Shown: piece by piece, positions 9,175 to 38,404 of the stretch
Position numbering within the stretch: the stretch's first letter is position 1
Layout: each line of letters opens with the position of its first letter
Assembly (NCBI GenBank): GCA_963711505.1
Contig: CAVQEJ010000003.1
Location: 781,564 to 845,563, forward strand
Origin: an uncultured Acidobacteriota bacterium
GTDB lineage: Bacteria > Acidobacteriota > Vicinamibacteria > Vicinamibacterales > CAVVIG01
Reading direction: 5' to 3'
Length of the DNA: 64,000 bases
Notes under the pieces: model-generated
What the model saw: only the letters and a program-made list of their open reading frames with translations
Databases searched by the model: none
What the model was told of the DNA's origin: nothing
Position numbers and translations under genes: made by a program

Positions 9175-9262
9175 GCCGGGGTGGCGGAACCGGTAGACGC
9201 TGGGGACTTAAAATCCCCTGACCCTTCGGGTCGTGTGGGTTCGATGCCCACCCCCGGCACCA
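9175..9262 (+). tRNA. tRNA-Leu (anticodon UAA), class II with long variable arm, CCA encoded
   Basis: Manual cloverleaf. Acceptor GCCGGGG/CCCCGGC. Anticodon stem GGGGA/TCCCC with loop CTTAAAA. Variable arm TGACCCTTCGGGTCGT. T-arm GTGGG-TTCGATG-CCCAC. Discriminator A followed by CCA. Confidence 0.95.
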
Positions 9263-10543: not shown

Positions 10544-11329
10544 ATGTACATGCCACGCTCGGCCGCCAAAGTCGTTCCGGCGCTGATCCTGTTGCTGGCG
10601 GCGCTCATTGGGCCGCCCCGGGTGGAAGCCGCCTCGTTCACGGTCAGCCCGACGCAGGTCTTCCTGTCGGAGCACGCCACGAGTGCGCTCCTGACGCTCC
10701 GGAACGACAGCGACGAGCCGTTGCGGTTTCAGTTGACGCTGTTCCGGTGGGATCAGTCCCCGGACGGCGAGATGACGCTGACGCCGAGCGAAGACATCGT
10801 GTACTTCCCGAAGCTCGTGGCGCTCGACAAGCGGGAGGAGCGCAAGATCCGCATCGGCCTGATCGGGGCGTTCGGCGACGCCGAGCGGACCTACCGGATC
10901 TTCGTCGAGGAATTGCCGCCGGCGGTCGAACCGGGAGCCCCCACGGCCGGGGTCCGGATGCGGACGCGCATGGGCATTCCGATCTTCCTCGAACCGCTCA
11001 AGGCCACCCAGGGGGCGGACGTCACCGGGCTGACGGTCGACAACGGACAGGTCGTGGTGCGCGTGCACAACCGCGGCACGATCCATTTCATCACCGACAC
11101 GGTGCGCGTGAGTGGCACGAGCGCCCAGGGCACGCTGATCTTCAACAAGATCGTGAACGGGTGGTACATCCTCGCCGGCCGGTCGCAGGTCTACAAGGTT
11201 CCGCTGAGCGATGCCGAGTGCCAGGCGACGGCCACGGTGTCAGTAGAGGTGAAGATCGGTGAGTCAATACTCCGGCAGAAGGGCGATCGCCCGGCGGCCG
11301 GCTGCCGGCCGCCGGCCGGCCGGCGATGA
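10544..11329 (+). CDS. Periplasmic pilus chaperone (PapD-like, CsuC-type)
   Basis: Intact 261-aa ORF with a signal peptide and two Ig-like domains (FTVSPTQVFL...LTLRNDSDEPLRFQL...YRIFVEELPP...MGIPIFL). Located between the SCPU pilin and the usher. The C-terminal end is uncertain because it overlaps the usher start region. Confidence 0.75.
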   Translation: MYMPRSAAKVVPALILLLAALIGPPRVEAASFTVSPTQVFLSEHATSALLTLRNDSDEPLRFQLTLFRWDQSPDGEMTLTPSEDIVYFPKLVALDKREERKIRIGLIGAFGDAERTYRIFVEELPPAVEPGAPTAGVRMRTRMGIPIFLEPLKATQGADVTGLTVDNGQVVVRVHNRGTIHFITDTVRVSGTSAQGTLIFNKIVNGWYILAGRSQVYKVPLSDAECQATATVSVEVKIGESILRQKGDRPAAGCRPPAGRR

Positions 11330-13746
11330 ACGACGGTGGGACATGGAGGGATGGCCACGGCATCGCGCGCGGGCGACCGCCATCGGCCGATCCCGTCTGT
11401 CGGCCACGCCGTCGACCCGCATGATCGCGGCGGCGGCGCTGGTGGCGGTCTTGTCGGTGTCCGCGGCGCGCGCGGCCGACGGACAACGCGCCCTGATCGA
11501 ACTGGTCGTCAACGACGTGCCCCAGGGCAACACGCTGATCGTCCTGCGTGACGGGGAGCTCTGGATCACCGTGAAGGCGCTCGACGACGCGGGCCTCACG
11601 GGCTACCAGGGGCGGCGCGAGTCGATCGACGGCGTGCCGTACGTCCTGGTGTCGTCGCTGGCGCCCGCCATCACCTCGGTCTTCGACGAGCGCGGCCTCA
11701 CGCTTCACCTCACCGCGCGGCCCGAACTGTTCGCCCGCCACACGCTGGCGCTTCAGAACCCGCGGCCGGCCAACATGGTGTACGCGCGGACGCCGAGCGC
11801 CTTCGCGAACTACGCCCTGACCTGGCATCAGGGCCAGCCGGGAATCGACACCTTCCTCGAAACCGCGATGAGCGCGGGGCCGGCCTCCATCGACAGTACC
11901 TTTTCGCGGCTGGCGGCGGACGGCCGGATCGTCCGCAACCTGACGACGCTGACCATCGATGCGCGGTCGCGCCTGCAGCGGTGGAGGGCTGGTGACGTGA
12001 TCGCGCGGGCCGGACCGCTCGACGACAGCGTGATCATCGGTGGGCTGGGCGTCAGCCGCGAGTACGGCCTCGATCCCTACTACCAGTCCTATCCCTCGCC
12101 ATCGATCTCGGGGACCGTGACCACGCCCGCCACGGTCGACGTGTACGTGGATGGTCGTCTCGTCCGGCAGGAGCCCCTCGCGCCCGGGCCGTTTCAGGTG
12201 ACCCAGCTGCCGTTGTCGGCCGGGCTCGGCACGGCCGCGTGGTCGTGCGCGACGCCTTCGGCCGGGAGCAGCAGTTCGTCGAGCCGTACTACCTGACCAC
12301 GGCGCTCCTCCGGCGCGGGACACGTGACTACCAGTACGTGGTGGGCGTCGCGCGCAGTCAGGACCTCAGCCGTCCGTCGGCGTACGACACGCCGACGGCC
12401 GTGGCGGTGGACCGTGTCGGCCTGACCGGTTGGCTCACGGCCGGGTATCGGGTCGAAGCCGACCGCCACACCATCAACGGCGGGCCGACCGTCAACCTGC
12501 GTCTGTGGCGTCTGGGCGAGATCGAATGGGCCGGGGCCGTCAGCCGGCAGGCGGAGACGCATCGGTGAGGCCGGCCACCTCGCCTACACGTTCACGGGAC
12601 ACGCCGTCAGTCTGTCGGCGGTGGCGCGGGTCTATTCTCCGCAGTACGCCACGCTGCTGGCGCCGCCGCGCAACCGGTGGGCCTCCCTGGTCTCCGGCGT
12701 GCTCAGTGTGCCGCTCGGACGGCGGATCTCGCTCAGCGTCCAGCATACGATCGACGACCTCGCCGACGTCGAGCCGGGGCGGCCGATGCGGAACCGGCGG
12801 ACGGCGTTGACCGGCACCTGGCGTGCGGCCGGCCGTCTCGAGTTCTACGGGACGGTGGCGTTGAACGAGCAGACCGACAGCGCCAGGCGGCTCGATGTCT
12901 TCGCGGGCGCGAGCCTGCTGCTCGGGACGCAGGACCGCCATCAACGTGGCGCACGACCGGAGTGGGTCGCAGGGACTCACGACGGTGGAGATGCAGCAGT
13001 CGCTGCCGGTGGGGCCCGGTTTCGGGTATCGGCTGAGCGGCGTGGCCGGCGACGGAATCAGCCCCAGCGGCAGCGGCGTGCTGCAGTATCAGGGGGCGTT
13101 CGGTCGCTACGAGGTCACGCGCGACGTCGGCCCGGGGGGCGCGGGCACGTCGGTCAGCGCCAGCGGGGGGCTCGTCGCGATCGGCGGCGGGCTGCACCTC
13201 ACCCGCGCCGTGTCGAGCAGCTATGCGCTGGTCCGCGTGCCGGGCGCCGCTGGCGTGCGGGTGTACGACAACAACCAGCCGGTCGGCCGGACCGGCCGGC
13301 ACGGCAACCTGCTCGTGCCGAATCTGCTGCCGTATTACGGCAATCGTCTCAGCATTGCCGACACCGATCTTCCGCTCGATTACGACATCGAGCACACCGT
13401 GCAGACTATCGCCCCGCCGTTCCAGGGCGGCGCGCTGGTGGCGTTCCTGGCGGAGCGGATTCAGGGGGTCACCGGCCGGGTCGTGCTGACACGCGGCGGG
13501 GCGCGGACCGTGCCGGTCTACGGCAATCTCGTCGTCACGGTCAAGGGCGTCCGGCACGTGTCGCCCATCGGCGAGCAGGGCGAGTTCTACTTCGAGAACC
13601 TGCCCGCCGGGCCGCACCCGGCCGCCGTGGAGTTCGGCGACATGCCATGCGCCTTCACGCTGACCGTGACGCCATCGGCTGCACCATTCATCGATCTGGG
13701 AACCGTAGTCTGTGACGCCGGAGCACCGGCGGGGGGAACGCGATGA
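11259..13746 (+). CDS. Outer-membrane fimbrial usher (CsuD-type); at least 3 frameshifts (~12235, ~12560, ~12930)
   Basis: The sense chains through ORFs 11259.., 12239.., 12621.. and 12895..13746. Usher-like features include ALIELVVNDVPQGNTLIVLRDGELWITVKALDDAGL and VVVRDAFGREQQF. C-terminal region: VRVYDNNQPVGRTGRHGNLLVPNLLPYYGNRLSIADTDLPLDY. The start is uncertain (GTG 11259, ATG 11343 or ATG 11421). Confidence 0.7.
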
Positions 13747-14204
13747 GAGTCTCGATGATGCTGGTTGGCGCGATGCTGGCGGTGATGGTCTCGGCGCAGC
13801 CGGCCCGGGCCGACTGCGAGGTGCAGAGCAGCGGGATCGTGTTTCCCGCCTACGACGTCTACGCCACACAGCCGCTCGATGCCGTGGGATCGCTGCAGTT
13901 CAAGTGCTCGCCCGAGCAGAAGAACACGACGCCCACCGTGCGGCTGACACTCGGGGCGGAGCCCGACGGGACCTTCGTGCGGCGGATGAGAAACGACGGC
14001 GACACGCTGCACTACAACCTGTTCATGGACCCGTACCATACGGCCGTGTGGGGTGACGGCACCGGAGGCACGATGGCGTACATCGCCGCCTGTTGTCCCG
14101 TCGGCAAGTTCTCGGACGTGAAGGTGTACGCGCGGATTCCCGCCGGTCAGGACGTGTCGGCCGGCACCTACGTCGATTCGATGCTCGTCACGATCGAGTT
14201 CTAG
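13743..14204 (+). CDS. SCPU-domain fimbrial subunit (intact)
   Basis: ATGA overlap with the usher stop. Signal peptide ending ARADCEV. LHYNLFMDPYHTAVWGDG...YARIPAGQDVSAGTYVDSMLVTIEF is the SCPU signature. Confidence 0.85.
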   Translation: MRVSMMLVGAMLAVMVSAQPARADCEVQSSGIVFPAYDVYATQPLDAVGSLQFKCSPEQKNTTPTVRLTLGAEPDGTFVRRMRNDGDTLHYNLFMDPYHTAVWGDGTGGTMAYIAACCPVGKFSDVKVYARIPAGQDVSAGTYVDSMLVTIEF

Positions 14205-15053: not shown

Positions 15054-15142
15054 CGTCCATCAGGGTAGCACAGAGTTGCGGCCGGGTGGGCACCGGGAGT
15101 CGGCAGGCGGGTTGTTCGAGCGCCCGTCCGGAGTCAGAGACC

Positions 15143-15961
15143 ATGAGCACGCGTGCTCTCACGCCGGTGATGGCCGCGATCGCCCTCTTGCTCGGAATCG
15201 CCGCACCGTCTCTGGCGACGCCACGGACCGGCGGGCGGCAGGCGGGCGCCCTGGCAGCGCCCAAGAGCCTGTGCGCGGAGTGTCACCTGGTGACGTCCAC
15301 CGCGCGGTCGCGGGCGCACGTGCTCGATTGGGAGCGCTCGGTCCATGCGAGACGGAACGTGGGCTGTGACGCCTGCCATGGCGGTGAGCCGACCGCGATG
15401 GATCCGATGAAGGCCCATCTGACGATCCTCGACAACGAGAACCCGAAGAGTCCCATCTATCCCGCGAACCTGCCCGTGACGTGCGGCCGGTGCCACACGC
15501 GGGCGGCCGAGGAGTTCAGGGCGAGCGCGCATTACGCCGTCCTGATGTCCACGCCGAACGCCCGCGTCCCGACCTGTTCCACCTGTCACGGCGAGACGGG
15601 CGCCCGGTTGCCGGACCCCGAGCAGGTGCGGGCCATTTGTGCGCAGTGCCACGGCGTCGGCACGCCGGCCGGGCATCCCGAGTACGCGGCGTCGGCCAAG
15701 GTGCTCACCATGCAGTACGCGGCGGCGAAGATGATGCTCGACGAGGTGAGCAACTTCATTCCATTGATCCCCGATGCGACCCTGCGCGCCAGCTTCGAAG
15801 CCGACCAGGTCCGCGCGTACCAGGGCCTGACCGCCGCGGCCGAAGCCAATCACACGCTGGACTACGACAAGATCGAGGAGAAGATCACGGTGGCGTTCGA
15901 GCGGGTCGTCGCGCTCATCCGGCGGGTGATGAGCAGCATGCCGAGGGCGCCGAGAGACTAG
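15143..15961 (+). CDS. Pentaheme c-type cytochrome, paralogue A1
   Basis: Signal peptide. Five CXXCH motifs (CAECH, CDACH, CGRCH, CSTCH, CAQCH). Heme-free helical C-terminal ~100 aa. GGAG lies 9 nt upstream of the ATG. Confidence 0.85.
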   Translation: MSTRALTPVMAAIALLLGIAAPSLATPRTGGRQAGALAAPKSLCAECHLVTSTARSRAHVLDWERSVHARRNVGCDACHGGEPTAMDPMKAHLTILDNENPKSPIYPANLPVTCGRCHTRAAEEFRASAHYAVLMSTPNARVPTCSTCHGETGARLPDPEQVRAICAQCHGVGTPAGHPEYAASAKVLTMQYAAAKMMLDEVSNFIPLIPDATLRASFEADQVRAYQGLTAAAEANHTLDYDKIEEKITVAFERVVALIRRVMSSMPRAPRD

Positions 15962-22107: not shown

Positions 22108-25100
22108 ATGAAACGCCTTGCCGATCCCTTGAAACTGATTGCCTTCGTGGCGGCCGTGGCGCTCGGGGCGACGCTGGCGCGGCCGGCCGCGCTGGCGGCC
22201 GATGCGCCGGCGCCCGCGACGCCGATGCGCACGCTGAAGTGGCGCAGTGTCGGTCCCTACATCGGAGGCCGCGTCGTCGCCGTCACCGGCGTGGCCAGCG
22301 ACCCGAACCTGTTCTACATGGGCGGCGTCGACGGCGGCGTCTGGAAGAGCACCGATTACGGCCTGCAGTGGAAGAACATCACCGATGGCACGCTGCCCGG
22401 CACGAGCGACAGCATCGGCGCCGTGGCCGTGGCACCGTCCAACCCGGACGTGATCTACGTGGGGACGGGCGAGAGCGACATCCGCGGCACGTTCATCACC
22501 GGTGACGGCGTCTACCGGTCGACCGATGCCGGCAGGACGTGGCAGTACGCCGGGCTCCGCGACACGCACACGATCAGCAATATCGTGATCGATCCGAAGA
22601 ACGCGGACGTGGCCTACGCTTCGTCGATGGGCCACGTGTTCGTCCCCGGCGCGAACCGCGGCGTCTTCAAGACCACCGATGGCGGCAAGACGTGGAGCAA
22701 GATTCTGTTCGTCGACAACCAGACCGGCGTCATCAACCTGGTGATGGATCCGATGGACCCGCAGGTGCTGTACGCGGCCGCGTGGCAGGCGCAGCGGACG
22801 CCGTGGAGCCTGACGAGCGGCGGTCCGGGCAGCGGCCTCTACAAGACGACCGACGGCGGCGCGCACTGGACGAACATCACGGATCATGCCGGCCTGCCGG
22901 CCGGGCCGCTCGGCCGGATGGGCGTCTCGGTGGTGGCGACCCACCCGAACATCCTCTACGCCATCATCCAGGCGAAGCAGGGCGGCGTCTTCCGCTCGAC
23001 CGACGCCGGCGCCACCTGGACGCGCGTGAACCAGGAATGGAAGCTCCGTCAGCGCGCCTTCTACTACATGAGCATCTTCGCCGACCCGAACGACCCGAAC
23101 ACGGCCTACGTGCCGGAGGTCGACGCGCTGTGGGTGACGCGCGACGGCGGCAAGACGTGGTCGGAACTGCATACCCCGCACGGCGACAACCACATCGTCT
23201 GGGTCAACCCGAACGACACGAAGATCCTGCTCGAGGGGAACGACGGCGGCGCGACCATCTCGACCGATGGCGGGACGAGCTGGAGCACGGAGCACAACCA
23301 GCCGACCGGGCAGTTCTACCACGTGAACCTCGACAACGAGTTCCCGTACCACATCTTCGGCGCGCAGCAGGACGAGGGCTCCTTCGAGGGGCCGAGCGCC
23401 ACCGCCGACGGCAACATTCCGCTCGGGGCCTGGCAGCGCGTGGCCTACGGCGAGAGCACGTTCGCGGTGCCGGAACCCGGCAATCCCGAGGTCAACTACG
23501 GCAGCGGGTACTTCAGCATCTTCATGCGCTACGACCGCAGGACCGGGCAGTTCCAGGACGTCAGCCCGTGGCCGAACTACCAGGAGGGCAGCGCTTCCGA
23601 GGCACTGAAGTACCGGTTCGCCTGGACGCACCCGATCCTGTTCTCGCCCGCGAACCCGAAGGAGCTGCTGATCGGATCGCAGATCCTGTTCAAGAGCACC
23701 GACGGCGGACGGACGTGGCAGAAGATCAGCCCGGACCTCACGCGCAACGACCCGGCCACGGAGAAGCCGACCGGAGGCCCGATCGATCTGGATCAGTCGG
23801 GCGCCGAGATCTATCCATGCCTGTCGGCGGTGGCGGTGTCGCCGCTGGACAACAATCTGATCTGGGCCGGCTCCTCCGATGGCCTCATCCACGTGACGAC
23901 CGACGGCGGGCAGCACTGGCAGGCGGTCCGGCCGGAGGGACTCCCCGAACGGGCCGACATCAGCTCGATCGAGCCGTCGCACGTCGCGAAGGGGACCGCC
24001 TTCCTCACGGTGCAGCGGTACATGTGGGACGACTTCACGCCCTACGTGTTCAAGACCACCGACTACGGCAAGCACTGGACGGCGATGACCCACGGCCTGC
24101 CGGCCGACGAGTACGTCTTCACCGTGCGGCAGGATCCGAGCGACGCGAAGCTCCTCTTCCTGGGGACGAAGCACACGGTGTACGTCAGCCTCGACGGCGG
24201 TGAGCGCTGGCAGCCGCTCGGCCTGAACCTGCCGCACGTGCAGGTGCGCGACATCGCCATCAACCGGCGCCAGCAGCAGGTGGTGATCGCGACGCACGGC
24301 CGCTCGTTCTGGGTGCTCGACAACCTCGCCCTGCTCGAACAGCTCACGAAGGCGCCCGGCGCGACGATGACCGGTGCGCACCTGTGGGCCCCGCAGACCG
24401 CGTGGCTGAGTCATGCGTACGGCGGCAGCGCCTACGGCGGGGCCGACGCGGGTCAGAACCCGCCGTTCGGCGCGACGGTCTTCTTCAACGTGCCCTCGAG
24501 CTACGACGGCAGCACGCCGGCGAGCCTGTCGTTCCTCGACGCGAAGGGGCACGTGGTCCGGCGCTTCGCCCTGCATCCGAAGAAGGGGAGACGGTCAGGG
24601 CCAGGCGCACCAGGGCTCGGAGAACCCGGCCGACCAGGCGAAGCAGGCCGCCGAGCGGCTCACGGCGATCGCGCCCGGCATGAACCGCTTCCAGTGGGAC
24701 CTGCGCTATCCGGAGGCCACCGAGGTGAACGGCTTCTACCCGCCGGCGGCTGCCGGCGGCATGCCCGACGTCGTGGACGGGCCGGTCGTCGTGCCGGGCA
24801 CCTATCGGGTGGAGCTCGAGTACGGCGGGCGGACGATGACGCAGTCCTTCAAGGTGATGCTCGATCCGCGGCTGAAGGCGACCCCGACGGCGCTCGAGGC
24901 CCGGCTCGCGCTGGGACTGAAGATCCACAAGGCGCTCGACTCGCTCGACACGACGATCAACGAGGCGATCGCCGAGCGCGACCGTCTGCAGGCAAACGCC
25001 CAGGCCGGCCAGGCGCTGTCGGACCTCAATGCCGCGATCAACGGTCTGGTGCAGATGGACATCCACGCGAGCGAGGGAAGCCTGCTGCACGAGACGAAGC

Positions 25101-25258
25101 TGCGCAGCCACCTCGCCTATCTCGCGGGCGATATCGACCTGGCGTACACGGCGCCGACGGCCGCCCAGCAGGCGGTCTTCACCGAGCTGAGCCAGGAGGC
25201 GACGGCGGGCGAGCAGAAGCTGCGCGCCGCCATCGCGGAGGCGAAGCCGATTCACTGA
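22108..25258 (+). CDS. Large secreted BNR/Asp-box repeat beta-propeller protein (sortilin/VPS10-like, GH74-like architecture); +1 frameshift near 24588
   Basis: Signal peptide, then about ten Asp-boxes (STDAGRTW, TTDGGKTW, TTDGGAHW, STDAGATW, TRDGGKTW, STDGGTSW, STDGGRTW, TTDGGQHW, TTDYGKHW, SLDGGERW). The C-terminal ~220 aa continue in the frame of ORF 24413..25258. Confidence 0.8.
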
Positions 25259-25344: not shown

Positions 25345-26460
25345 TCAGGCGCCGGTCTTCTCGAACAGGTAGTGGGAGACGATCCACTCGTCGCCGTCGC
25401 GGTAGCCGAACAGCTCGGCGCAGGCGAGGAAGAAGAGCCGCCACCGGACCCACCACCGGCGCGCGTCCGGTGCGCCGTAGGTCCGCGCGAAGAGCGGCAG
25501 CAGCCGGTCCCGCGCGGCGTCCATGTTCGCGAGCCAGGCGTTCGCGGTTCTCTCGTAGTGGGTGCCGGTGAGTGTCCAGTGTCCGGTGGACGCGAGATCG
25601 CGGTCGAAGTACCCGAGGAGGTCGTCGCTCGGCATCAGGCCGCCGGTGAAGAACCAGCGCGCCATCCAGTCGCTGGCATCGCGGACCTCGAACGGATAGG
25701 CGAGCCGGCGGTGCGCGAAGACGTGGACGAACAGCCGGCCGTCGCGCTCGAGCCAGCCGGCGATGCGGGCCAGCAGCCGCTCGTAATTGCGCATGTGCTC
25801 GAACATCTCCACCGACACCACGCGGTCGAAGCGTCGATCGGTGGTGAAGTCGTTCATGTCGGCCGTCACGATCTCGAGGTTCGTCAGGCCGCGCGCCGCC
25901 GCGCGGGCCTCGATGAGGGCGCGCTGCGAGCGCGAGTTGGAGATGCTCACGAACCGGCTGGCGGGGAAGCGGGCGGCCATGTACAGCGAGAGCGATCCCC
26001 AGCCGCACCCGAGCTCGAGCACCCGCTGCCCGTCGGCCAGCCCGGCGCGCCGGCAGGTCAGATCGAGCATGGCCTCCTCGGCTTCGTCGAGTGTCGTGAC
26101 GCCCTCCGGCCAGTACGCGGCGCTGTACTTGAGGTGACGCCCGAGCACCGCCTCGAAGAAGGCCGCCGGCACCTCGTAGTGCTGGGCGTTCGCGGCGTCG
26201 GGATGGAGCGCGATGGGACTCCGCCGGAGCTCCTCGACGAAGGCCAGCTTTCGCGCGAGGCTGGCGGCGGCGCCGCCCCGCCCCTCCTCCCGGAGACGCT
26301 GGCGGAGCAGCCGGCGGATGCCGGCCCGCAGCAGGTGATCGGGCACGAGATCGCGCTCGACGATCGGTTCGTACCAGGCCCGTCGTTCCCCGGCGCCGGT
26401 CACGGCCGCGACCGACGCCCGATCGGCGGTGGCGATGTCGTTCACGACGGCCTCCCTCAC
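25345..26460 (-). CDS. cfa: Cyclopropane-fatty-acyl-phospholipid synthase family SAM-dependent methyltransferase
   Basis: [24 protein letters not shown]...[16 protein letters not shown]...[12 protein letters not shown] start at 26460 forms a GTGA overlap with the upstream DUF1295 stop. The longer track ORF (to 27192) is read-through. Confidence 0.85.
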
Positions 26461-27272
26461 GCGCGCCCTTCCGGCCGGCGCGGAAACCAGGGCACGAACG
26501 CACTCGTCGTCCGCTGGTAGTTGCGGTACTCGTCGCCGCGGCTTCGCAGCGCCTGGGCTTCGGTGGCCGGAATGCCGGTGACGCGCAGCAGGAAGTACAG
26601 CATGAGCGCCGGCGACAGCAGGCCGACGAGGCCGTGCGGCGAGCCGAGCGCGAACAGCGCGAAGCCCACCCAGACCGTCCATTCGAAGAAGTAGTTCGGG
26701 TGGCGCGACCAGCGCCAGAGCCCGACGCGGCAGGTCCGTCCCCGGTTGGCGGGGTCCGCCTTGAAGCGGTGCAGTTGGGTGTCGGCCGCGATCTCCCCGC
26801 TCATGCCGAGAGCCCAGACGAGCAGCCCCGCGCACTCGATCGCGTGCAGTCCCGGCGCGGCATTCAGGGCCGGCAGCAGGAACGGCGTGCTCAGGGCCAC
26901 GCAGAGCACGGCCTGGCATTCGAAGAAGAGAAGGAACTTCAGTGGTACGTGGGTGCGCCACGCGCGCCGCAGCTCCACGTAGCGACCCTCCTCGGGCTGC
27001 CCGATGACCCGCGTCACCAGCAGGTATCCCGACAGGCGAAGTCCCCAGACCCCGGCCATGACGGCGACGACGAGCGAGCGCAACGGATCGCCGTGGCCGC
27101 CCGCGGCGTAGACCCAGGCCAGGAGCACCAGTCCTCCGGCCCAGCCTGCATCGACGATGGCGGCGTTCCCGGTGCGGAGGTGGACGAGCCACAGCACGAA
27201 CATGAGCGCCGCGACCGCTCCGGTGCCGACAGCGATCAGAACCATCGCGTCGTGGATCATGTGCGGCCTCAC
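26457..27272 (-). CDS. DUF1295 family membrane protein (steroid 5-alpha-reductase / ICMT-like fold)
   Basis: Intact polytopic protein. [23 protein letters not shown] and [18 protein letters not shown] are DUF1295 hallmarks. Its start overlaps the regulator stop, indicating an operon. Confidence 0.8.
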
Positions 27273-28192
27273 GCGCGGTTCTCGAACCTCAGGAATTCCG
27301 CCTCGAGTGCCTCAATGGTCTCGATCGGCACCGCCCGGGAGCCGGGGAAGCCTGCGACCGTCCGGGCGGCCTGCGGTCCCCCTATCCAGAGCGTCACCCC
27401 GGCCGGCAGCTGACCAGCCAGCCGGGCGGCGTCCGCGATGGAGTCCGCGTTGTCGCTGGTCCGCGTCATCCCCAGCAGCACGGCGTCGGGACGGATCCGT
27501 TTCACCACGTGGAGGACTTCCGCGGCCGGCAGGTCGGCCCCCAGATAGGTGATGTCGATGCCGCGGCCGGTCGCCAGCAGCGCGGCCGCGAGGATCCCGA
27601 ATTCGTGTCGCTCACCGGCTGGCGTCGCCAGCAGGAGCCGGAAGGTGTGAGAACGGACCGGCACCAGCCGGAGCAGCGTGCCCAGCAGGCTGCGCATCAC
27701 CGCCGACAGCATGTGCTCGTGCGCGACATGGAGGCGGCCGTCGTGCCACGCATCTCCCACGTGGCGGAGCAGCGGCAGCACCACTTCGTGCACCAGGGTC
27801 GGCGCCGGCAGCAGGGCCGCCAGGCGCGACAGTTCCGATTCGACCTCCGAGAACTCGAACCGCTCAACCGCCTGCAGGAGTGCTTCGCGCACCGCCGGTG
27901 CGAGCGCCTCCGCCGTCGCCGGTTCGAGCGGAGCTGCGCCCTTCCGCTTCCGTCCCAGCAGTGCCTCGAGATCGGCATCCGCGCGGTCGGCGACCTGGCC
28001 GATGGCGAAGCCGGAGTCGACGGCTTCACGCAGCAGCCGAAGGCGGGTGACGTGCGCTTCGGTGTACAGGCGGCCGCGCGGGCCCCGCTCCGGTTCCACC
28101 GCGCCATAGCGGCGTTCCCAGGCTCGAAGGGTGTCGACCGACAGGCCCGCCAGTCGGGCGGCGGCGCGAATGGGGTAGCGGTTCGCTTCCAT
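27269..28192 (-). CDS. MerR-family regulator with C-terminal cobalamin-binding domain (CarH/LitR-type light-responsive repressor)
   Basis: N-terminal MerR HTH ([25 protein letters not shown]). W-x9-EH motif ([15 protein letters not shown]). B12 motif ExHxxG (GERHEFG) followed by ...WIGG. Intact. Confidence 0.8.
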
Positions 28193-28235
28193 CTTCTTTC
28201 CACAGAGTAGTGCGTTGAGCCGAGTATGTCAATCA

Positions 28236-28283
28236 TTTGTCTATGACAAAGGCTTGACGTAGTGCCAGCCGGGATGCTACAAG
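28236..28283 (+). promoter_or_regulatory. Divergent control region: perfect inverted repeat TTTGTC-TAT-GACAAA (28236-28250) abutting a TTGACG-N18-TACAAG promoter-like element (28254-28283)
   Basis: Read directly from the 131-bp gap between the CarH-like gene (start 28192, minus strand) and the desaturase gene (start 28324, plus strand). Locally AT-rich. Confidence 0.4.
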
Positions 28284-28323
28284 CAGAAGAAGGCTCCAGC
28301 TATCGCAGAACCGAGGGGAAGAC

Positions 28324-29164
28324 ATGGGCTCCGCCGCGCAGGTTGTTGTTCGTCGTCCGTGGCGTTACCAGTTGGGGGCGATTCTGCCGTTCGTCCTGAT
28401 CCATCTGGGGGCGCTGGCCGTCTTTTCGTGCCGTTCCGCTGGTCACTGGTCGGCTGGTTCGCCGCGAGCTATGCCGTGCGGGTGTTCGGCGTCACGGCTG
28501 GGCATCACCGGTATTTCAGTCACCGCTCGTACAGGCTGGGGCGCATCAGCCAGTTCGTGATGGCGTGTCTCGCCCAGACGGCGGCGCAGAAGGGGGTCCT
28601 GTGGTGGGCGGCGCATCACCGGGCGCACCACCGTCACGCGGATGCCCCGGGGGACATCCACTCACCGTGGCTGAAGACGCTCTGGTGGGCGCACGTCGGC
28701 TGGGTGCTGTCGAACGACACGACACGTACGACCCGCGACGGGTCGCCGACTTCGCGCGGTTTCCGGAGCTGCGCTGGCTCGATCGCCATCACTGGGTGCC
28801 GGCGGCGGTCTACGGGTCGGCCATCTGGCTGATTGGGGGCTGGGGCGCCTTCGTGTGGGGCTTCCTGCTCGCCACGGTAGCGGTCTATCACGCGACGTTC
28901 GCCGTGAACTCGGTCGCCCACGTGTTCGGCTGGCGCCGGTTCGAGACGCCCGACCAGAGCCGCAACAGTCTGCTGCTCGCGCTGGTGACCTTCGGCGAAG
29001 GGTGGCACAACAACCATCACTATTCGATGACGAGCTGCCGCCAGGGTCTCCGGTGGTGGGAGATCGACCTGACGTACTACGTGCTGCGGCTGCTGAACCT
29101 CGTGGGTATCGCGCGCGACCTGAAGGGGTTTCGCCGGCCGCAGGCGGGAAAGCGCGCGGCATGA
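28324..29164 (+). CDS. Membrane acyl-CoA/acyl-lipid desaturase (stearoyl-CoA delta-9 desaturase family); 2 frameshifts (~28425 in a T run, ~28720)
   Basis: The three His boxes are spread over three frames: HHRYFSH, HHRAHHRH, and GWHNNHHY. The sense chains through ORFs 28324.. -> 28359.. -> 28565..29164. Confidence 0.8.
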
Positions 29165-30411
29165 TGCGCGTGGCCGTCATCGGCGGCGGCATCTCCGGGC
29201 TCGCGGCGGCCTACTACCTGAGCCGGAAGCACCGCGTGTTCGTGCTCGAGGCGGAGTCGCGCCTCGGCGGTCACACGCACACGGTCCCGGTCGAGACCAG
29301 CCGGGGGCCGATGCCGATCGACACCGGCTTCATCGTCCACAACGAGCGGACGTACCCGCGTCTGGTCCAGCTGCTCCGGGAGCTGGGCGTGGCGACGCAG
29401 GCGTCGGACATGTCGTTCGCGGTGACCTGTCCCTCGACCGGCTTCGAGTACCTCGAGCCGGGGGCTCCGCGGATTCTTCGCGCAGCGGCGCAACCTGGTG
29501 CGCGGGCGGTCGTGGGAGCTGCTGCGCGAAATCGTCCGGTTCAACCGGACGGCGCCTTCGGTGCTGGCGCGCGAGGACGCCGACCGCCTGACGCTGGGCG
29601 ACTTCCTCGAGGCGCACCGGTTCGGCGGGGTCTTTCTCGACTACTACCTGCTGCCGATGGCGTCGGCGATCTGGTCGGCGACCTTCCCGGCGATCCGCGC
29701 GTTTCCCGCCCAGACGCTCGTGCGGTTCTTCGCCAATCACGGGATGCTCGGTCTGAACACCCATCCGCAGTGGCGAACGATCACCGGCGGCAGCGCGACG
29801 TACCTCGGGCCGCTGACGGCGCCCTTCCAGGAGCGGATCGTCACCGGGGCGCGTATCGAGACGGTGGCACGGGATGAAGCCGGGGTGACCGTGCGCTTCG
29901 TCGATCGGCCGGCGATGGCTTCGACCAGGTGGTGTTCGCCTGCAACGGCGATCGTGTGCTGAGGCTCCTCGAGGCACCGACCGACACCGAGCGCGAGGTG
30001 CTCGGCGCCTTCCGCACCAGCCGGAACGACGTCTGCCTGCACACCGACAGCCGCCTGCTGCCGCGGCGGCCCGCGGCGCGGGCCGCGTGGAACTACAACC
30101 TGGATCCATCGAACGGCCACGCAGCGACGGTCACCTACCACATGAACCGTCTGCAGGCACTGCGGCTGCCGGAGGACTACTGCGTGACGTTGAACGGAAC
30201 CGAGCGCGTCGATCCGGCGCGCGTGATCCGGTGCATGACCTACCACCACCCGCTGTTCGACCACGCGGCCATCCGGGCGCAGGGGCGCTGGGGTGACATC
30301 AGCGGCCGGCATCGGACGCACTTCGCCGGGGCGCACTGGTTCTACGGCTTCCACGAGGACGGACTGAACTCGGCGCGCCGCGTGGCGCGGGCGCTCGGGG
30401 TGCGGCTGTGA
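29161..30411 (+). CDS. FAD/NAD(P)-binding amine-oxidase / phytoene-desaturase-like oxidoreductase; 2 frameshifts (~29450, ~29915)
   Basis: ATGA overlap with the desaturase stop. Rossmann motif MRVAVIGGGISGLAAAYYL. Continues FFAQRRNLV...HPQWRTITGGSATY...VVFACNGD...GAHWFYGFHEDGLNSA across three frames. Confidence 0.8.
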
Positions 30412-31208
30412 CGATGGCCAGCGGCGTCTACCGGGGCACGCTGCGCCATCGCCGCTTCGAGCCGCGGGCGCATGCCTTCACGTACGAGCTCTTCATGGTG
30501 CTGCTCGACATCGATCGGATTCCCGACCTGATGCGCGTGTCGCCGCTCGCCGGCTGCAACCGGTTCGCCTGGGCGAGCTTCGACGACCGCGATCATCTCG
30601 GCGACCCGACGCAACCGCTCCGGGAGCGCCTGCGGGGCGACGCCGCCGCGCACGGCATCGTCCTGCCCGATGGCCCCATCTACCTGCTGACGCACCTGCG
30701 GTACCTCGGTTATGCGTTCAACCCCGTGTCGTTCTTCTATTGCGGAGACGGGCAGGGACACGTCGCGGCGATTCTGGCCGAGGTGAGCAATACCTTCGGC
30801 GACCGGCGTCACTACTGGCTGTGGGACGGGAACCGGCAGCCGTCCGGCGGCGGCCTGCGCTTCCGGGTGCCGAAGACGCTCCACGTGTCGCCGTTCATGG
30901 CGATGGGGCTCGATTACACCTTTGCCTTCACGCCGCCGGGCGATCGACTCGTCGCCCACATGAACACGCTGGACGGAGGACGGCCCTTCTTCGACGCGAC
31001 GCTGCGGCTGACGCGGGAGCCGTGGAGTGGCCGCGCCCTTCATCGGGCGCTCGCGCGCCACCCGTGGATGACGGCCAAGGTGATCGGGGCGATCCACTGG
31101 GAGGCCCTCAGGCTCTATCTGAAGAAGGTTCCGGTACATCACCGGCCGGCGCCGCCGCCGCCGGACCCGTCGGCATCCCGGCTGAAGGGAGACTCCGCAC
31201 ATGCGTGA
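30408..31208 (+). CDS. DUF1365 family protein (intact)
   Basis: YRGTLRHRRFEPRAHAFTYELFMVLLDIDRI...YLGYAFNPVSFFYC is typical of DUF1365. Overlaps both neighbouring genes, indicating an operon. Confidence 0.85.
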   Translation: MTMASGVYRGTLRHRRFEPRAHAFTYELFMVLLDIDRIPDLMRVSPLAGCNRFAWASFDDRDHLGDPTQPLRERLRGDAAAHGIVLPDGPIYLLTHLRYLGYAFNPVSFFYCGDGQGHVAAILAEVSNTFGDRRHYWLWDGNRQPSGGGLRFRVPKTLHVSPFMAMGLDYTFAFTPPGDRLVAHMNTLDGGRPFFDATLRLTREPWSGRALHRALARHPWMTAKVIGAIHWEALRLYLKKVPVHHRPAPPPPDPSASRLKGDSAHA

Positions 31209-32664
31209 CTGGACCACCCGTGCCGCGAAGCGGTATTTCCTGCAGGCGCTCGACGGATTGTCGGACGGCGGCCTCGAACTGGTCGGGCCCGACGGGATCC
31301 GGGCGTTCGGCGACCGGGATGCGCCGTTGCGCGCCGTGATCGAGGTGCACGACGAGCGGTTCTACCGGCGTGCGCTGATCGGTGGCGACACCGGCATGGG
31401 GGAATCGTGGATGGACGGGGACTGGAGCTCGCCGGATCTCATCTCGGCCGTGCGGCTGGCGCTGCGGAATGCCGCCCGGCTGGAGGCCGGTCACCGCTGG
31501 ACGTCGGCCGCCCGGCGCCTGCTGGACCTGGCGGCCCAGCGGCAGCGAGCCAATACGCCGGCCGGCAGCCGGAGGAACATCCACGCGCACTACGATCTGG
31601 GCAACGACTTCTTCTCGCTGTTCCTCGATCGTCGACTCGTCTACTCGTGCGCCTACTATGCGCATGCGGATGAGTCGCTCGAGGAGGCGCAACTCGGCAA
31701 GCTCGATCGCATCTGCCGGAAGCTCGACCTGCGGGCCGGCCAGCGCGTGCTGGAGATCGGCACCGGCTGGGGGGCGTTCGCGATCCACGCGGCCCGCGAG
31801 TACGGGTGCCACGTGACCACGACCACCATCAGCCGCGAGCAGTTCGACTACGTCAGGGCGCGGCTGGGCGAGATGCCGGACGTGGCCCGACGGGTCACGC
31901 TGCTGAACGCGGACTACCGCACCCTGCAGGGCGCGTTCGATCGACTCGTCAGCATCGAGATGTTCGAGGCCGTCGGCTTCGCCAACTACGATCGGTTCTT
32001 CGGCCTCTGCGATCGACTGCTGGGCTCCGAGGGGGCGATGCTGCTGCAGACGATCACGATGACCGACCAGCGCTTCCCGATCTACCGGCGCTCGGCCGAC
32101 TGGACGCAGAAGTACATCTTCCCCGGAGGCCAGCTCGCGTCGATGTCCGGCGTGCTGGCGTCGCTGCAGCGGGTGACGGGACTGAGGCTCCACCATGCCG
32201 AGGACATCGGCGCCCACTACGCGCGGACGCTGGAGATCTGGCGCGACCGGTTCCTGGGCGCCCTGCCGGCCGTGCGCGCCCGCGGGTTCGACGAGCGCTT
32301 CATCCGGATGTGGGACTTCTACCTGGCGTCCTGCGCGGCCGCGTTCCGGGAACGCTACATCGGCGACGTCCAGCTGCTGCTGGTGCGCAACGGGTGCCGC
32401 CGGCCATTGATGAACGAGCCGTGGCCGGGGGAGGGTGACGGAGTCGGACGGGACGCGGCGGAGGTCGCGCCCCGGGACGAACGCGACCGCATTCGGCGGC
32501 CGTCAGCTGACGCTCGACACGCGCAGGCGGCCGCCGGGCGGGCCGTGGATTTTTCGACGGGTCGCGCGCAACCGTCCTTTCCAGGGTTCGTGCCCGCCGT
32601 CTTTCAGACGAAATTCCGTCTGTTCAGAGGGTTTCGTGGCTGGAACTCCTTTTGCAACGTTTGA
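31201..32664 (+). CDS. Cyclopropane-fatty-acyl-phospholipid synthase-like SAM methyltransferase (second copy; C-terminal ~75 aa extension doubtful)
   Basis: IHAHYDLGNDFFSLFLD...VLEIGTGWGAFAIHAA...VSIEMFEAVG...IFPGGQLAS...WDFYLASCAAAF. The methyltransferase domain ends near 32420. The tail to 32664 is low-complexity and may be read-through. Confidence 0.8.
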   Translation: MRDWTTRAAKRYFLQALDGLSDGGLELVGPDGIRAFGDRDAPLRAVIEVHDERFYRRALIGGDTGMGESWMDGDWSSPDLISAVRLALRNAARLEAGHRWTSAARRLLDLAAQRQRANTPAGSRRNIHAHYDLGNDFFSLFLDRRLVYSCAYYAHADESLEEAQLGKLDRICRKLDLRAGQRVLEIGTGWGAFAIHAAREYGCHVTTTTISREQFDYVRARLGEMPDVARRVTLLNADYRTLQGAFDRLVSIEMFEAVGFANYDRFFGLCDRLLGSEGAMLLQTITMTDQRFPIYRRSADWTQKYIFPGGQLASMSGVLASLQRVTGLRLHHAEDIGAHYARTLEIWRDRFLGALPAVRARGFDERFIRMWDFYLASCAAAFRERYIGDVQLLLVRNGCRRPLMNEPWPGEGDGVGRDAAEVAPRDERDRIRRPSADARHAQAAAGRAVDFSTGRAQPSFPGFVPAVFQTKFRLFRGFRGWNSFCNV

Positions 32665-32682
32665 CGTACGAGGAGGTTCGTC

Positions 32683-32814
32683 ATGATCACGATCGGATGG
32701 ATTGGCTTCATGATCGTGCTGGGCGGCATGTTGCTCGGCCTGGGCGGGGCCGCACTCATTGCTGTCGTGCTGTACGACGTCAGCGTCCGGCACAAGTCGA
32801 AGACCGGCGCCTAG
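32683..32814 (+). CDS. Small hydrophobic protein (43 aa), not in the ORF track
   Basis: MITIGWIGFMIVLGGMLLGLGGAALIAVVLYDVSVRHKSKTGA. ATG is preceded by GAGGAGG at the optimal distance (gaggaggttcgtcATG). One or two TM helices followed by a basic tail. Confidence 0.5.
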   Translation: MITIGWIGFMIVLGGMLLGLGGAALIAVVLYDVSVRHKSKTGA

Positions 32815-33085: not shown

Positions 33086-34027
33086 GTGTCTGACGAAAAC
33101 ATCTTCGTCGCCTTCGCGCTGCGCGCGGCCAACTCGCCCGGTGACGCCTGCCTGGTGCATCTGTGGGATGCCGGGCAGGGCACGGGCCGGCTCGTCGCCT
33201 GCCATCACCGGCGGGGCGAAGCGACGGCCTTGCTGATGTCGTGGGTGAGTGGCAGCGTGGGCGATCCCGCGAGGACGCCCTGGACCCGCGTGATGCGGAC
33301 CGGGCAGACGCTGCTCATCCCGTCGGCGGGACTGGCGGACGTGCGCGAGTTCGCCGTGGGTGAAGGCGACCTGTACCTGTCGCAGTGGGGCGTGCAGAGC
33401 ATCCTCATCCTGCCGCTGCGGCTGCAGGACGACGTGATCGGTGCCGTGACCCTGTTGCGGGATGCGGCGGGAGCGCCGTATACGCCGGTCGACTGGGAGA
33501 CGCTGCGGCACCTGACCGAGGGGCTGGCGCGGGCGCTGGCGCGGCGGGGCGCGGCGGGGGTGGCGGAGCTGAGTGCGAGCGCTCAGCCGCTGGTCGACGT
33601 CCACGCGGCGGCACGCGAGCGGCGGCCGGTACGGCGGGTGTCGGAGGGCGAATCGCCGATCATCGTGCTGGTCGAGGACGAGCATTCGGTGCGCGATCTC
33701 GTGCGCGAGATCCTGCAGCGGCAAGGCTACGTCGTGCTGGAAGCCGAGACGGCCGAGGACGCCCTGACCATCGTCGCCGGCCACACGGGCCGGCTCGATC
33801 TGCTGCTGACCGACGTCGTGATGCCCGGCATGAGCGGCGTGGCGCTCGCCGAGCGGCTGCGCCAGAGCCATCCCGGCCTGAGCGCGCTGTACATGTCGGG
33901 CTACGTCGACCAGTCGCTCACGAGCCGCAGCGATGCGGCGCGACCGACGCGCTTCCTGCAGAAGCCGTTCACGCTGGAGACCCTGCTGCGCGCCGTGCGC
34001 GACGCGCTCTCCAGCGACGCCTCCTGA
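33086..34027 (+). CDS. GAF-domain plus receiver-domain response regulator (no output domain)
   Basis: The N-terminal ~170 aa are GAF-like (SILILPLRLQDDVIGAVTLLR). C-terminal REC domain: IIVLVEDEHSVRDLV...LLLTDVVMPGMSG...SGYVD...FLQKPF. GTG start. Confidence 0.75.
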   Translation: MSDENIFVAFALRAANSPGDACLVHLWDAGQGTGRLVACHHRRGEATALLMSWVSGSVGDPARTPWTRVMRTGQTLLIPSAGLADVREFAVGEGDLYLSQWGVQSILILPLRLQDDVIGAVTLLRDAAGAPYTPVDWETLRHLTEGLARALARRGAAGVAELSASAQPLVDVHAAARERRPVRRVSEGESPIIVLVEDEHSVRDLVREILQRQGYVVLEAETAEDALTIVAGHTGRLDLLLTDVVMPGMSGVALAERLRQSHPGLSALYMSGYVDQSLTSRSDAARPTRFLQKPFTLETLLRAVRDALSSDAS

Positions 34028-36974: not shown

Positions 36975-38404
36975 ATGGCAGAACGGCATGAGATGGGGAT
37001 GATCGGCCTCGGCGTCATGGGCCGGAATCTCGTCCTGAACATGGCCGATCACGGCTTCCCGGTGGTCGGCTTCGACAAGGACCCCGCCAAGGTGGAGGCG
37101 CTGCGCCGCGAGGCGGGCCAGCGGCCCGTGAAGGGCGCCAGCACGCTCGACGAGTTCCTCGGCCTGCTGCGGTCGCCGCGCGCCGTGATGATGCTCGTGC
37201 CGGCGGGCGGCCCGGTCGATGCGGTCGTCGACGAGCTGCGTCCCCACCTCGATCGGCAGGACGTCATCATCGACGGCGGCAACTCGTTCTACCGCGACAC
37301 CGATCGCCGCGCGAGCGCGCTGGCGAAGGACGGTCTGCACTTCGTCGGCGTCGGCGTCTCGGGCGGCGAGAAGGGGGCGCGCTTCGGTCCGAGCATCATG
37401 CCGGGCGGCGCGAAGGAGGCCTGGGATCGCCTGCGGCCGGTGCTGGAGGCGGTGTCGGCGAAGGTCGACGGCTCGCCGTGCGTGACGTACCTCGGGCCGG
37501 GCTCGGCCGGGCACTACGTGAAGATGGTGCACAACGGCATCGAGTACGGCCTGATGGAGCTCATCGCCGAGGCCTACGACCTGATGAAGCGGGGCCTGGG
37601 GTTCGACGACGACCGGCTGCACCGGGTCTTCGAGACGTGGAACGGCGGCGAGCTGAACGGCTACCTCATCGAGATCACGGCCGACATCTTCCTGCAGCCC
37701 GACGATCGCACCGGCAAGCGGCTGGTCGACATGATCCTGGACGAGGCGAAGCAGAAGGGGACGGGGAAGTGGACGTCCCAGGACGCGATGGATCTCCAGG
37801 TGCCGGTGCCGACGATCGATGCGGCCGTGGCCATGCGCGATCTGTCCGGGTACAAGAGCGAGCGGAGTGGCCGCCCAGCGTCTGTATCCCCCGACGAAGG
37901 CGCCGGCCGGGACTCGAGGCAGAGGCCTTCATCGAGCAGCTCGGCCATGCGCTCTACGCCGGCATGGTGATGACCTACGTGCAGGGGATGGCCCTGCTGC
38001 GCCGGGCGTCCGAGGCCTACCAGTACGGCCTGGCGCTCGACGAGGTGGCGCGCATCTGGCGCGGCGGCTGCATCATCCGCGCGGGGATTCTCGAGAAGAT
38101 TCGTACCGCCTATCACCGGACGCCCGACCTGCCGAACCTGCTGCAGGACGAGGCGTTCGCGTCGGACCTGCACGCCCGGCAGGGCGCGCTGCGCGGCGTC
38201 GTGCAGGCGGCGGCGCAGCTCGGCATTCCGGCGCCGGGACTGATGGCGTCGCTCGGCTACTTCGACGGGTACCGCTCGGGCCGTCTGCCGGCCAACCTCA
38301 CCCAGGCGCAGCGTGATTACTTCGGATCGCACACCTACGAACGGGTGGACGCGACGGGCGTGTTCCACACCGAGTGGCAGCAGACCGCACGGGAGGGTCG
38401 ATGA
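36975..38404 (+). CDS. gnd: 6-phosphogluconate dehydrogenase (decarboxylating); 2 frameshifts (~37866, ~37907)
   Basis: AAGGAG RBS. GMIGLGVMGRNLVLNMADHGF...GGNSFYRDT...GVSGGEKGARFGPSIMPGG...HYVKMVHNGIEYG. The C-terminal third lies in the frame of ORF 37478..38404, reached via a short stretch in a third frame. Confidence 0.9.

Follow-up and report, generated by a model that had tools for sequence, protein, structure and literature searches.

What does a CarH-type B12 photoreceptor govern at a locus whose other genes modify fatty acids, when such photoreceptors are known almost only as switches of carotenoid genes? The question arises from a gene cluster at positions 25345-32814 of a 64,000-nucleotide (nt) stretch of acidobacterial DNA (CAVQEJ010000003.1, positions 781,564-845,563), hereafter the window, in whose coordinates all features below are given. 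A MerR-family regulator gene with B12-binding domains here heads one operon and faces a second one that starts with a fatty-acid desaturase gene. The first-pass annotation had read this arrangement as a light-controlled lipid regulon; its observation on the gene cluster is partly confirmed by the present analysis, and its interpretation is largely supported. A Pfam scan confirmed the gene content of the cluster as first listed, and no carotenoid gene was seen among the open reading frames (ORFs) scanned in the window, as the annotation had held. We consider it rather probable that light controls the cluster as a regulon for the modification of membrane fatty acids, organized around a B12-dependent repressor of the CarH/LitR type.

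Domain content and motifs of the regulator

The regulator gene (27269-28192, minus strand) is the first of the minus-strand operon and encodes a protein of 307 amino acids (aa), in which a MerR winged helix-turn-helix is followed by a four-helix bundle and a Rossmann B12 module. Pfam models locate these parts as MerR_1 (5.6e-16, residues 6-69), B12-binding_2 (101-173) and B12-binding (185-275), with both B12 domains scoring above cut-off. The top phmmer matches among PDB sequences are the Thermus thermophilus CarH (TtCarH) entries 3whp and 5c8d, with E about 1e-23. Residues 102-256 align to CarH 5c8a/5c8d, and the DNA-binding domain also aligns to the CarA domain structure 2jml.

The phmmer alignment offers a closer view of the residues around the cofactor. 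A 19-residue stretch of the regulator aligns with TtCarH VGEAWHRGEIGVAEEHLAS and keeps the W149-x9-E159-H160 cap, and the His that follows the Trp in the TtCarH alignment (W149-H150) is present as well. Further along, GERHEFG aligns with TtCarH GERHEIG, giving E194-x-H196-x-x-G199 with the cobalt-ligating His included. Across an alignment of 20 relatives that are 43-67% identical to the window protein, E159, H160, H196, G199, G271 and G272 are invariant, while W149 and E194 are conserved at 90% or more. The W-x9-E-H, E-x-H-x-x-G and GG signatures that had been assigned to this MerR gene were thus all borne out by Pfam, by the CarH alignment and by the 20 relatives.

Of the more than 1500 database proteins that match the regulator at E<=1e-10, those that are named come mostly from Acidobacteriota. 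Judged by its sequence, the regulator is not an orthologue of the CarH proteins studied so far and belongs to a subfamily of its own within class I LitR/CarH.

A symmetric operator over two putative divergent promoters

The intergenic region between the two operons contains a 33-bp operator, TGTCAATCATTTGTCTATGACAAAGGCTTGACG (28227-28259), which follows the pattern TGTCAA-N5-TGTC-N3-GACA-N5-TTGACA and matches it at 19 of the 20 specified bases. It comprises four TGTC/GACA half-sites in a 2+2 inverted repeat with a core palindrome at 28236-28250. The perfect palindrome TTTGTC-TAT-GACAAA noted earlier is indeed present at these positions, but it forms only the centre of a longer inverted repeat of 17+17 nt, whose arms (28225-28241 and 28245-28261) are 82% complementary. 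When the 20 specified bases were scored in 37 divergent intergenic regions, comprising the window and 36 related loci where the regulator faces the lipid operon, the pattern reached 17-20 in all of them, against a maximum of 15 in 2000 shuffles. At a threshold of 16/20 the pattern occurs a single time in the window. Over 1.2 Mb of related loci, at 17/20, it is found as a rule once per locus and always before the regulator's operon. Even in loci with the regulator last in its operon (L018, L026, L034, L052), the operator still lies between the divergent operons.

The outer operator half-sites coincide with putative -35 boxes of both divergent promoters, with TTGACA reading outward on each strand. 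Both promoters were read from the sequence together with its conservation. The candidate promoter of the regulator operon (28204-28232, minus strand) has a -35 TTGACA (28232-28227), a 17-nt spacer and a -10 TACTCT (28209-28204). On the plus strand, the TTGACG-N18-TACAAG element pointed out by the first reading is found at 28254-28283 as the putative promoter of the plus-strand operon, and the closest relative, an Acidobacteriota metagenome-assembled genome (MAG; locus L001), carries TTGACA-N18-TATAAG at the same position. At a distance of 17-18 nt past the outer TTGACA, a TAnnnT sequence stands on the regulator side of 33 of the 37 regions and on the opposite side of 19, compared with a background of 4%.

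A single bound complex would cover both -35 boxes, which argues for repression by occlusion, with autoregulation of the regulator's own operon. We also considered activation by spacer distortion, as is typical of MerR proteins. In that mode the operator lies between the -35 and -10 boxes and the spacer is 19-20 nt long; here the operator sits on the -35 boxes and the spacers have a normal length of 17-18 nt, and this mode was rejected. A further inverted repeat of 15 nt (28158-28172 and 28323-28337, 80% complementary) flanks the whole control region, with one arm in the N-terminal codons of the regulator and the other over the desaturase start codon; it is probably a product of chance.

Enzymes encoded by the two operons

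Junctions between the genes are overlaps of 4-8 nt or gaps of a few bases, and the cluster is therefore organized as two tight divergent operons. On the minus strand, the order of regulator, DUF1295 gene and methyltransferase gene agrees with the first listing, both in the Pfam matches and in the overlapping or nearly touching junctions. On the plus strand, the five listed genes are present in order, but the desaturase and oxidoreductase genes are frameshifted and the operon membership of the terminal 43-aa ORF is uncertain.

The core of the plus-strand operon resembles the genes of furan fatty acid formation. The desaturase gene (28324-29164) is interrupted twice, and the three His boxes HRYFSH, HHRAHH and HNNHH are visible in its ORF translations. 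Its intact L001 orthologue matches mouse SCD1 (4ymk) at 3.8e-30, so that the earlier label of a delta-9-type membrane desaturase (SCD/OLE1 type) is a fair one. It is followed by a UfaD-like oxidoreductase gene binding flavin and nicotinamide adenine dinucleotides (FAD/NAD; 29161-30411), likewise interrupted twice, whose N-terminal piece matches Pfam NAD_binding_8 and Amino_oxidase. This gene adjoins, with a 4-nt overlap, that of a UfaO-like protein of 266 aa (30408-31208), which matches Pfam DUF1365 (PF07103) over its full length with 263 bits.

The two S-adenosylmethionine-dependent methyltransferases, a long one in the plus operon (CMAS_L, 31201-32664) and a short one in the minus operon (CMAS_S, 25345-26460, minus strand; alternative start GTG 26445), had been described as two Cfa paralogues. 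Both are of the CMAS family, CMAS_L with 293 bits to Pfam CMAS, and as a substitute for a tree we set their clades apart by contrasting their best PDB matches. CMAS_L falls in the Cfa/UfaM clade, with 213 bits to Escherichia coli Cfa (6bqc) and 83 bits to coclaurine N-methyltransferase (CNMT; 6gkv). For CMAS_S, CNMT is the best solved relative (261 bits versus 100 bits for Cfa), which assigns it to a CNMT/LIME/FufM type; the paralogue description thus held for CMAS_L and not for CMAS_S. Cross-comparison gave identities of 29% between the short L001 protein and the long window protein and of 31% between the long L001 protein and the short window protein. With 307 and 154 bits, both methyltransferases stay below the cut-off of 400 of the NCBIfam Cfa model PRK11705.

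At the position of E. coli Cfa His266, a bicarbonate ligand of that enzyme, CMAS_L and five cluster-linked relatives (L001, L002, L003, L089, L090) have Gln, and His240 is replaced by Ala. The FufM/CNMT-like short clade keeps His at Cfa positions 266 and 240. Gln266 and Ala240 may mark off olefin-forming methylases from cyclopropane synthases.

The minus operon further encodes a membrane protein of the DUF1295 family (26457-27272, minus strand; alternative start ATG 27260). It matches Pfam DUF1295 with 232 bits, shows weak matches to the steroid-5-alpha-reductase (Steroid_dh, 5e-8), ICMT and PEMT families, and is 76% identical to its L001 orthologue. Its gene is paired with that of the CMAS_S-type enzyme in Burkholderia and Ralstonia too. 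The fungal UsgR, which resembles DUF1295 proteins, acts as an ene-reductase (PMC8597850), and the window protein is possibly one as well.

The 3' end of the plus operon is less clear. Homology of CMAS_L to its relatives stops near 32520, leaving the last roughly 48 codons doubtful. A frameshift in this tail was considered and rejected, as the window has GGA where L001 has its stop TGA, which is a substitution. Inside the doubtful tail and upstream of the 43-aa ORF, a GC hairpin (32527-32556) has a T run and resembles a terminator, and the true end of CMAS_L may be near 32520. The hairpin is followed by a stretch of lower GC content (32560-32680) with a second small hairpin, CAGACG-N6-CGTCTG.

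The hydrophobic 43-aa ORF (32683-32814, plus strand) shares 39 of 43 residues with L001. It is probably a real gene, because the differences fall mostly on third positions and the ribosome-binding site GAGGAGG is conserved. No convincing tblastn match was obtained beyond L001 in the other 80-odd loci, nor any Pfam match. We accordingly dropped it as a general part of the system, and regard it as a probable gene confined to the L001 clade, with uncertain operon membership.

Frameshifts in the desaturase and UfaD-like genes

The interruptions of the plus-strand genes were mapped against two relatives, L001 and a sister contig that is about 90% identical (L005). By tblastn, the desaturase falls into three pieces, in frames 1, 3 and 2, with 75-87% identity to the L001 protein, which is intact and 276 aa long; the oxidoreductase falls into three pieces that are 81-85% identical to the intact 416-aa protein of L001. 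Single-base deletions near 28421 and 28717 break the desaturase gene in the alignment to L001, and in the oxidoreductase gene one base is inserted near 29451 and one is missing near 29919. At none of the four sites is the frame lost in L005. Protein identity of the broken genes to L001 is 81-87%, higher than the 65-77% of the unbroken neighbours.

Frameshifts are not confined to the cluster. A BNR/sortilin gene (22108-25258) changes frame once relative to L001 near 24550-24600, and a 6-phosphogluconate dehydrogenase gene (about 36975-38395) does so near 37865-37916. Many ORFs of the window cover Pfam models only in part (G6PD_C from 97, acetate kinase 201-392, usher 407-545, Sigma54_activat from 53), and the phase of third-codon-position GC content switches often along the window. 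The sequences of the relatives are Flye-style long-read metagenome contigs. The window resembles an unpolished long-read assembly, and because frameshifts occur across it, the four indels are most probably assembly errors, with recent pseudogenization as a minority possibility.

Conservation and neighbourhoods in relatives

We surveyed 80 genome loci that encode relatives of the regulator; many of the contigs are incomplete, so that all counts are lower bounds. At least two of the three UfaD/UfaO/UfaM-like core genes stand beside the regulator in 37 of the 80 loci, and all three in 34. Among the remaining partners, DUF1295 is found beside the regulator in 35 loci, the FufM-like methyltransferase in 25 and the desaturase in 21, and 13 loci have all six genes. 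The operator, at 17/20 or better, is present in 59 loci, including 36 of the 37 core-containing ones. The arrangement of regulator and lipid cluster is thus widespread in Acidobacteriota and not a one-off; its carriers include an Acidobacteriota MAG, a 5-Mb genome and Paludibaculum fermentans (L003).

Variation within these clusters is seen around the regulator. In several relatives, small DUF1475 and DUF2062 genes lie between the regulator and DUF1295 (L002 11006-11881; L003 10933-11753), and they are absent from the window and L001. In eight other loci (L047, L051, L059, L065, L068, L069, L073, L083) the operator lies beside the UfaD-like gene, 450-490 nt upstream of the regulator, and a small gene probably heads the regulator's operon there.

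Regulator relatives without the lipid cluster (L055, L010, L066, L076, L028, L046, L086, L088) face photolyase, fasciclin-domain, DUF523/DUF1722, PAS-SpoIIE phosphatase, SRPBCC or NmrA/epimerase genes. In the motif-bearing loci among them, the same 33-bp operator is located between the regulator and its non-lipid neighbours. DUF1722 is the family of E. coli ybgA, which adjoins phr. The photolyase, fasciclin and DUF523/DUF1722 neighbours independently point to a light regulon, and suggest that the regulator family may govern a wider one.

Outside Acidobacteriota, the lipid module is met with other regulators. On a Burkholderia anthina plasmid (L089), five lipid genes follow an extracytoplasmic function (ECF) sigma/anti-sigma pair. 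On a Ralstonia wenshanensis megaplasmid (L090), the module follows a LitR-like MerR protein without a B12 domain and is accompanied by cryptochrome/photolyase genes. Together with the module, these betaproteobacterial loci also contain lipocalin, chalcone-isomerase-family, DUF2878, GTP cyclohydrolase I and cryptochrome/photolyase genes. The B. anthina plasmid is conjugative and has Tn7-like transposition genes beside the module; the lipid module can therefore move horizontally. As a unit of the photo-oxidative stress response it is widely shared, with a sensor that changes from lineage to lineage and is here apparently of the B12 photoreceptor type.

Proposed mechanism

From the observed domain content, signature motifs, conserved operator, promoter overlap and synteny, we infer B12 binding, a light response, repression and the chemical products of the pathway, as follows. 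In the dark, the regulator would bind adenosylcobalamin, oligomerize and occupy 28227-28259, by analogy with CarH of Thermus and Bacillus. One complex on both -35 boxes would shut both operons, the regulator's own gene included. Ultraviolet, blue or green light would cleave the cobalt-carbon bond, upon which the oligomer would disassemble and both promoters open.

By homology, the plus operon would then supply a delta-9 desaturase that introduces cis double bonds to give monoenoic acyl chains, a UfaM-like methylase that converts them into methyl-branched trans-enoates, a UfaD-like FAD desaturase that forms a conjugated diene, and a UfaO-like DUF1365 protein that inserts oxygen from O2, closing the furan ring. 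The minus operon would add a FufM-type methylase placing a second methyl group on the furan, and DUF1295, maybe as an ene-reductase. It would also deliver fresh apo-repressor, a sensible provision given that CarH cannot be used again after photolysis (PMC8156234). Furan fatty acids would build up in the phospholipids and scavenge singlet oxygen and radicals, filling the photoprotective role of carotenoids. Three steps of the pathway depend on O2, in agreement with a response to light in the presence of air.

A broader version of this mechanism concerns the regulator family as a whole, which is mainly acidobacterial. Its members might represent a new mode of DNA binding by B12 photoreceptors, in which a single oligomer on a symmetric 2+2 operator occludes two -35 boxes. 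The furan pathway might at the same time be extended by the delta-9 desaturase, which would provide substrate from saturated lipids on demand, and by an ene-reductase-like DUF1295 step, possibly leading to an undescribed lipid. B12 would thereby become one of the environmental factors that determine how the membranes of abundant soil bacteria are protected from light. We put this forward tentatively, as a possibility that we consider somewhat doubtful.

Weighing the evidence

Several observations speak against a B12-dependent light regulon of furan genes. With 131 bits, the regulator stays well below the cut-off of 400 of the NCBIfam CarH equivalog NF052513 (TransRegCarH). Myxococcus xanthus CarA keeps a canonical B12-binding motif and yet works without B12 (PMC8156234), and the motifs therefore do not prove B12 dependence. 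An Rfam scan of the whole window returned a single tRNA and no cobalamin riboswitch, and no gene for B12 synthesis or uptake was seen in the window ORF scans. The symmetric 2+2 operator is, on our analysis, a real architectural difference from CarH tandem arrays, and the binding mode proposed above is extrapolated. A strict E. coli-type sigma-70 consensus scan of 28100-28420 called no promoter, and the plus-strand -10 TACAAG has no terminal T; we keep the promoter assignment because of its cross-species conservation, despite the negative scan. As assembled, the plus-operon pathway is broken, since both the desaturase and the UfaD-like gene are frameshifted. Orthology to UfaM, UfaD, UfaO and FufM is something that we infer only from family and context, and RSP1089, a CMAS gene beside ufaO in the ufaD-ufaO operon of Rhodobacter sphaeroides, is dispensable for furan fatty acids (PMC7380195), so that adjacency does not prove a UfaM function of CMAS_L.

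This last point leads to an alternative in which the regulation is as proposed and the products are other modified lipids, such as cyclopropane, mid-chain methyl-branched or methylene fatty acids or a derivative reduced by DUF1295. Besides the case of RSP1089, it draws on the CMAS-family membership of both methyltransferases and on the 38% identity of CMAS_L to E. coli Cfa, with C139, E239 and Y317 kept. FufM alone is sufficient in vitro, so that no furan-pathway step is assigned to DUF1295, whose fungal counterpart UsgR would rather suggest a reduction (PMC8597850). However, the UfaD-like and DUF1365 genes, which are specific to furan ring formation, are kept with CMAS_L, the trio recurring in the 34 loci counted above. 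Their order matches ufaD-ufaO-ufaM of Rhodopseudomonas palustris, which is necessary and sufficient there (PMC7380195), and the Gln at Cfa His266 in CMAS_L and in cluster-linked relatives of two phyla argues against ordinary cyclopropanation. We therefore judge other products to be unlikely, while keeping them in mind. A loss of function at this particular locus, where the four frameshifts would be real, the desaturase and UfaD-like gene pseudogenes and the system non-functional, would account for four 1-nt indels within 2.1 kb next to five intact cluster genes, with none of the indel sites in a long homopolymer. Any such decay would have to be very recent, as the fragments are closer to L001 than the intact neighbours are, and the in-frame sister contig, the frameshifts in the BNR/sortilin and 6-phosphogluconate dehydrogenase genes, the partial Pfam matches, the frequent phase switches and the long-read origin of the relatives all point to the assembly instead. 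We give a decaying operon only a small chance.

The regulator might also not be a light sensor at all. It could be a CarA-like, B12-independent repressor relieved by another signal, such as singlet oxygen or an antirepressor, or a reporter of B12 availability. Next to the precedent of CarA, which needs neither B12 nor light (PMC8156234), and the low score on the CarH equivalog, the palindromic operator is closer to the inverted repeats of CarA than to the tandem repeats of CarH (PMC9304148). On the other hand, the adenosyl-capping and cobalt-ligating residues are conserved over relatives of 43-67% identity, which would be unexpected for a B12-independent protein, and the family neighbours are photolyase and photo-oxidative stress genes. 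No CarS-like antirepressor was noticed in the gene tables of the example loci, in which no search was aimed at CarS. A regulator without light sensing thus seems quite improbable to us, and a B12-dependent, light-responsive repressor of the lipid operons remains the reading that we prefer.

Other features of the window

Directly downstream of the plus operon lies a gene for a GAF and receiver domain response regulator (33086-34027, plus strand), which occupies the same place in L001 (65% identity) and not in more distant relatives. The sole Rfam match, a tRNA gene (9175-9259, plus strand), is followed by a chaperone-usher-type cluster (10544-14204, plus strand) with a PapD_N chaperone, an usher fragment and a protein with an SCPU spore-coat-U domain. 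At 15086-15961 lies a multihaem cytochrome c7-like ORF.

Significance

For furan fatty acid genes, a response to singlet oxygen or light is known only via ECF sigma factors or B12-independent LitR, in Proteobacteria. If the proposed regulation is true, a conserved class I (B12) regulator with a sharp operator on furan genes in Acidobacteriota would link this field with that of the CarH photoreceptors, and would, for the first time in a dominant soil phylum, make the regulation and physiology of furan fatty acids accessible. The delta-9 desaturase and DUF1295 would further be nominated as accessory genes of the furan pathway. The 33-bp symmetric operator offers an easy test case for the way in which CarH oligomers read DNA, with possible optogenetic use.

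Comparison with known systems

With CarH of Thermus thermophilus, Bacillus megaterium and Myxococcus xanthus and class I LitR of Streptomyces, the window regulator shares the three-part architecture and the Wx9EH and E/DxHxxG motifs. The likeness extends in part to the DNA, as the outer half-sites fit the TnnACA core, the spacing from outer to inner half-site is 11 bp and the sites overlap the -35 boxes (PMC8156234). In contrast to characterised CarH operators, which are 3-5 same-sense tandem 11-bp repeats nnnnTnnACAn (PMC8156234, PMC9304148), the half-sites of the window are arranged as two inverted pairs, two-fold symmetric over two divergent -35 boxes. The targets differ as well, being lipid-modification instead of carotenoid genes, and the host belongs to the Acidobacteriota.

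The other LitR classes come closer in their targets. In Pseudomonas, class II LitR proteins (PplR/PmlR with a short LOV protein) control a light-induced cluster with ufaM, a FAD-dependent oxidoreductase gene and a photolyase gene (PMC9758184). The earlier statement that a LitR homologue controls a similar gene set in Pseudomonas is sound. The Ralstonia LitR-like MerR protein, which consists of MerR domains only in the domain scan and shares 47% identity with the window regulator in the DNA-binding domain, stands directly upstream of a UfaD/UfaO/UfaM/DUF1295/FufM-like module. Unlike class II (Pseudomonas) and class III (Burkholderia) LitR, which lack a functional B12 Rossmann domain and perceive light via a LOV partner or by another mechanism, the window regulator has a full B12 module.

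The lipid genes find their closest counterpart in the furan pathway of R. palustris and R. sphaeroides. UfaD is a phytoene-desaturase-like FAD/NAD-binding protein, UfaO (RSP1090, RPA2570) a DUF1365 protein and UfaM a Cfa-like methylase, and in R. palustris RPA2571-2570-2569 (ufaD-ufaO-ufaM) are necessary and sufficient for a monomethyl furan fatty acid (PMC7380195). The second methyl group is the work of FufM, whose identity to UfaM is only 26% (PMC7380195), compared with 38% to Arabidopsis LIME1 (PMC10940516). The window matches these families, has the ufaD-ufaO-ufaM order of RPA2571-2569 and encodes a second methylase of the FufM/CNMT type. In both organisms the pathway is under sigmaE-ChrR (singlet oxygen) control, in line with the first-pass annotation, which had linked these families to methylated and furan fatty acids and to singlet-oxygen regulons. 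Unlike in Rhodobacter and Rhodopseudomonas, the regulator of the window would be a repressor of the photoreceptor type and not an ECF sigma/anti-sigma pair, a delta-9 desaturase gene leads the operon, and DUF1295 is co-transcribed, judging by the gene junctions, with the FufM-like gene and the regulator. A related set is found in the singlet-oxygen regulon of Chlamydomonas, with CFA1, the CNMT-like CFA2, a DUF1295 gene and fasciclin (PMC4067076).

Our literature searches combining furan fatty acids with Acidobacteria, or CarH/LitR with DUF1365/DUF1295, returned nothing directly relevant, and the SignatureFinder paper (PMC11796333) holds nothing on genomic context. What is already known, then, is the same lipid module under light or singlet oxygen in Proteobacteria, by way of B12-independent LitR classes or ECF sigma factors. 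What seems new here, as predicted from sequence, is control of the module by a class I (B12) regulator, together with the symmetric 2+2 operator. The cluster is not categorically new; it would represent a class I CarH/LitR subfamily whose symmetric operator serves furan genes instead of carotenoid genes, and an antioxidant pathway of the membrane is probably switched on by light here, in place of the usual carotenoid pigments.

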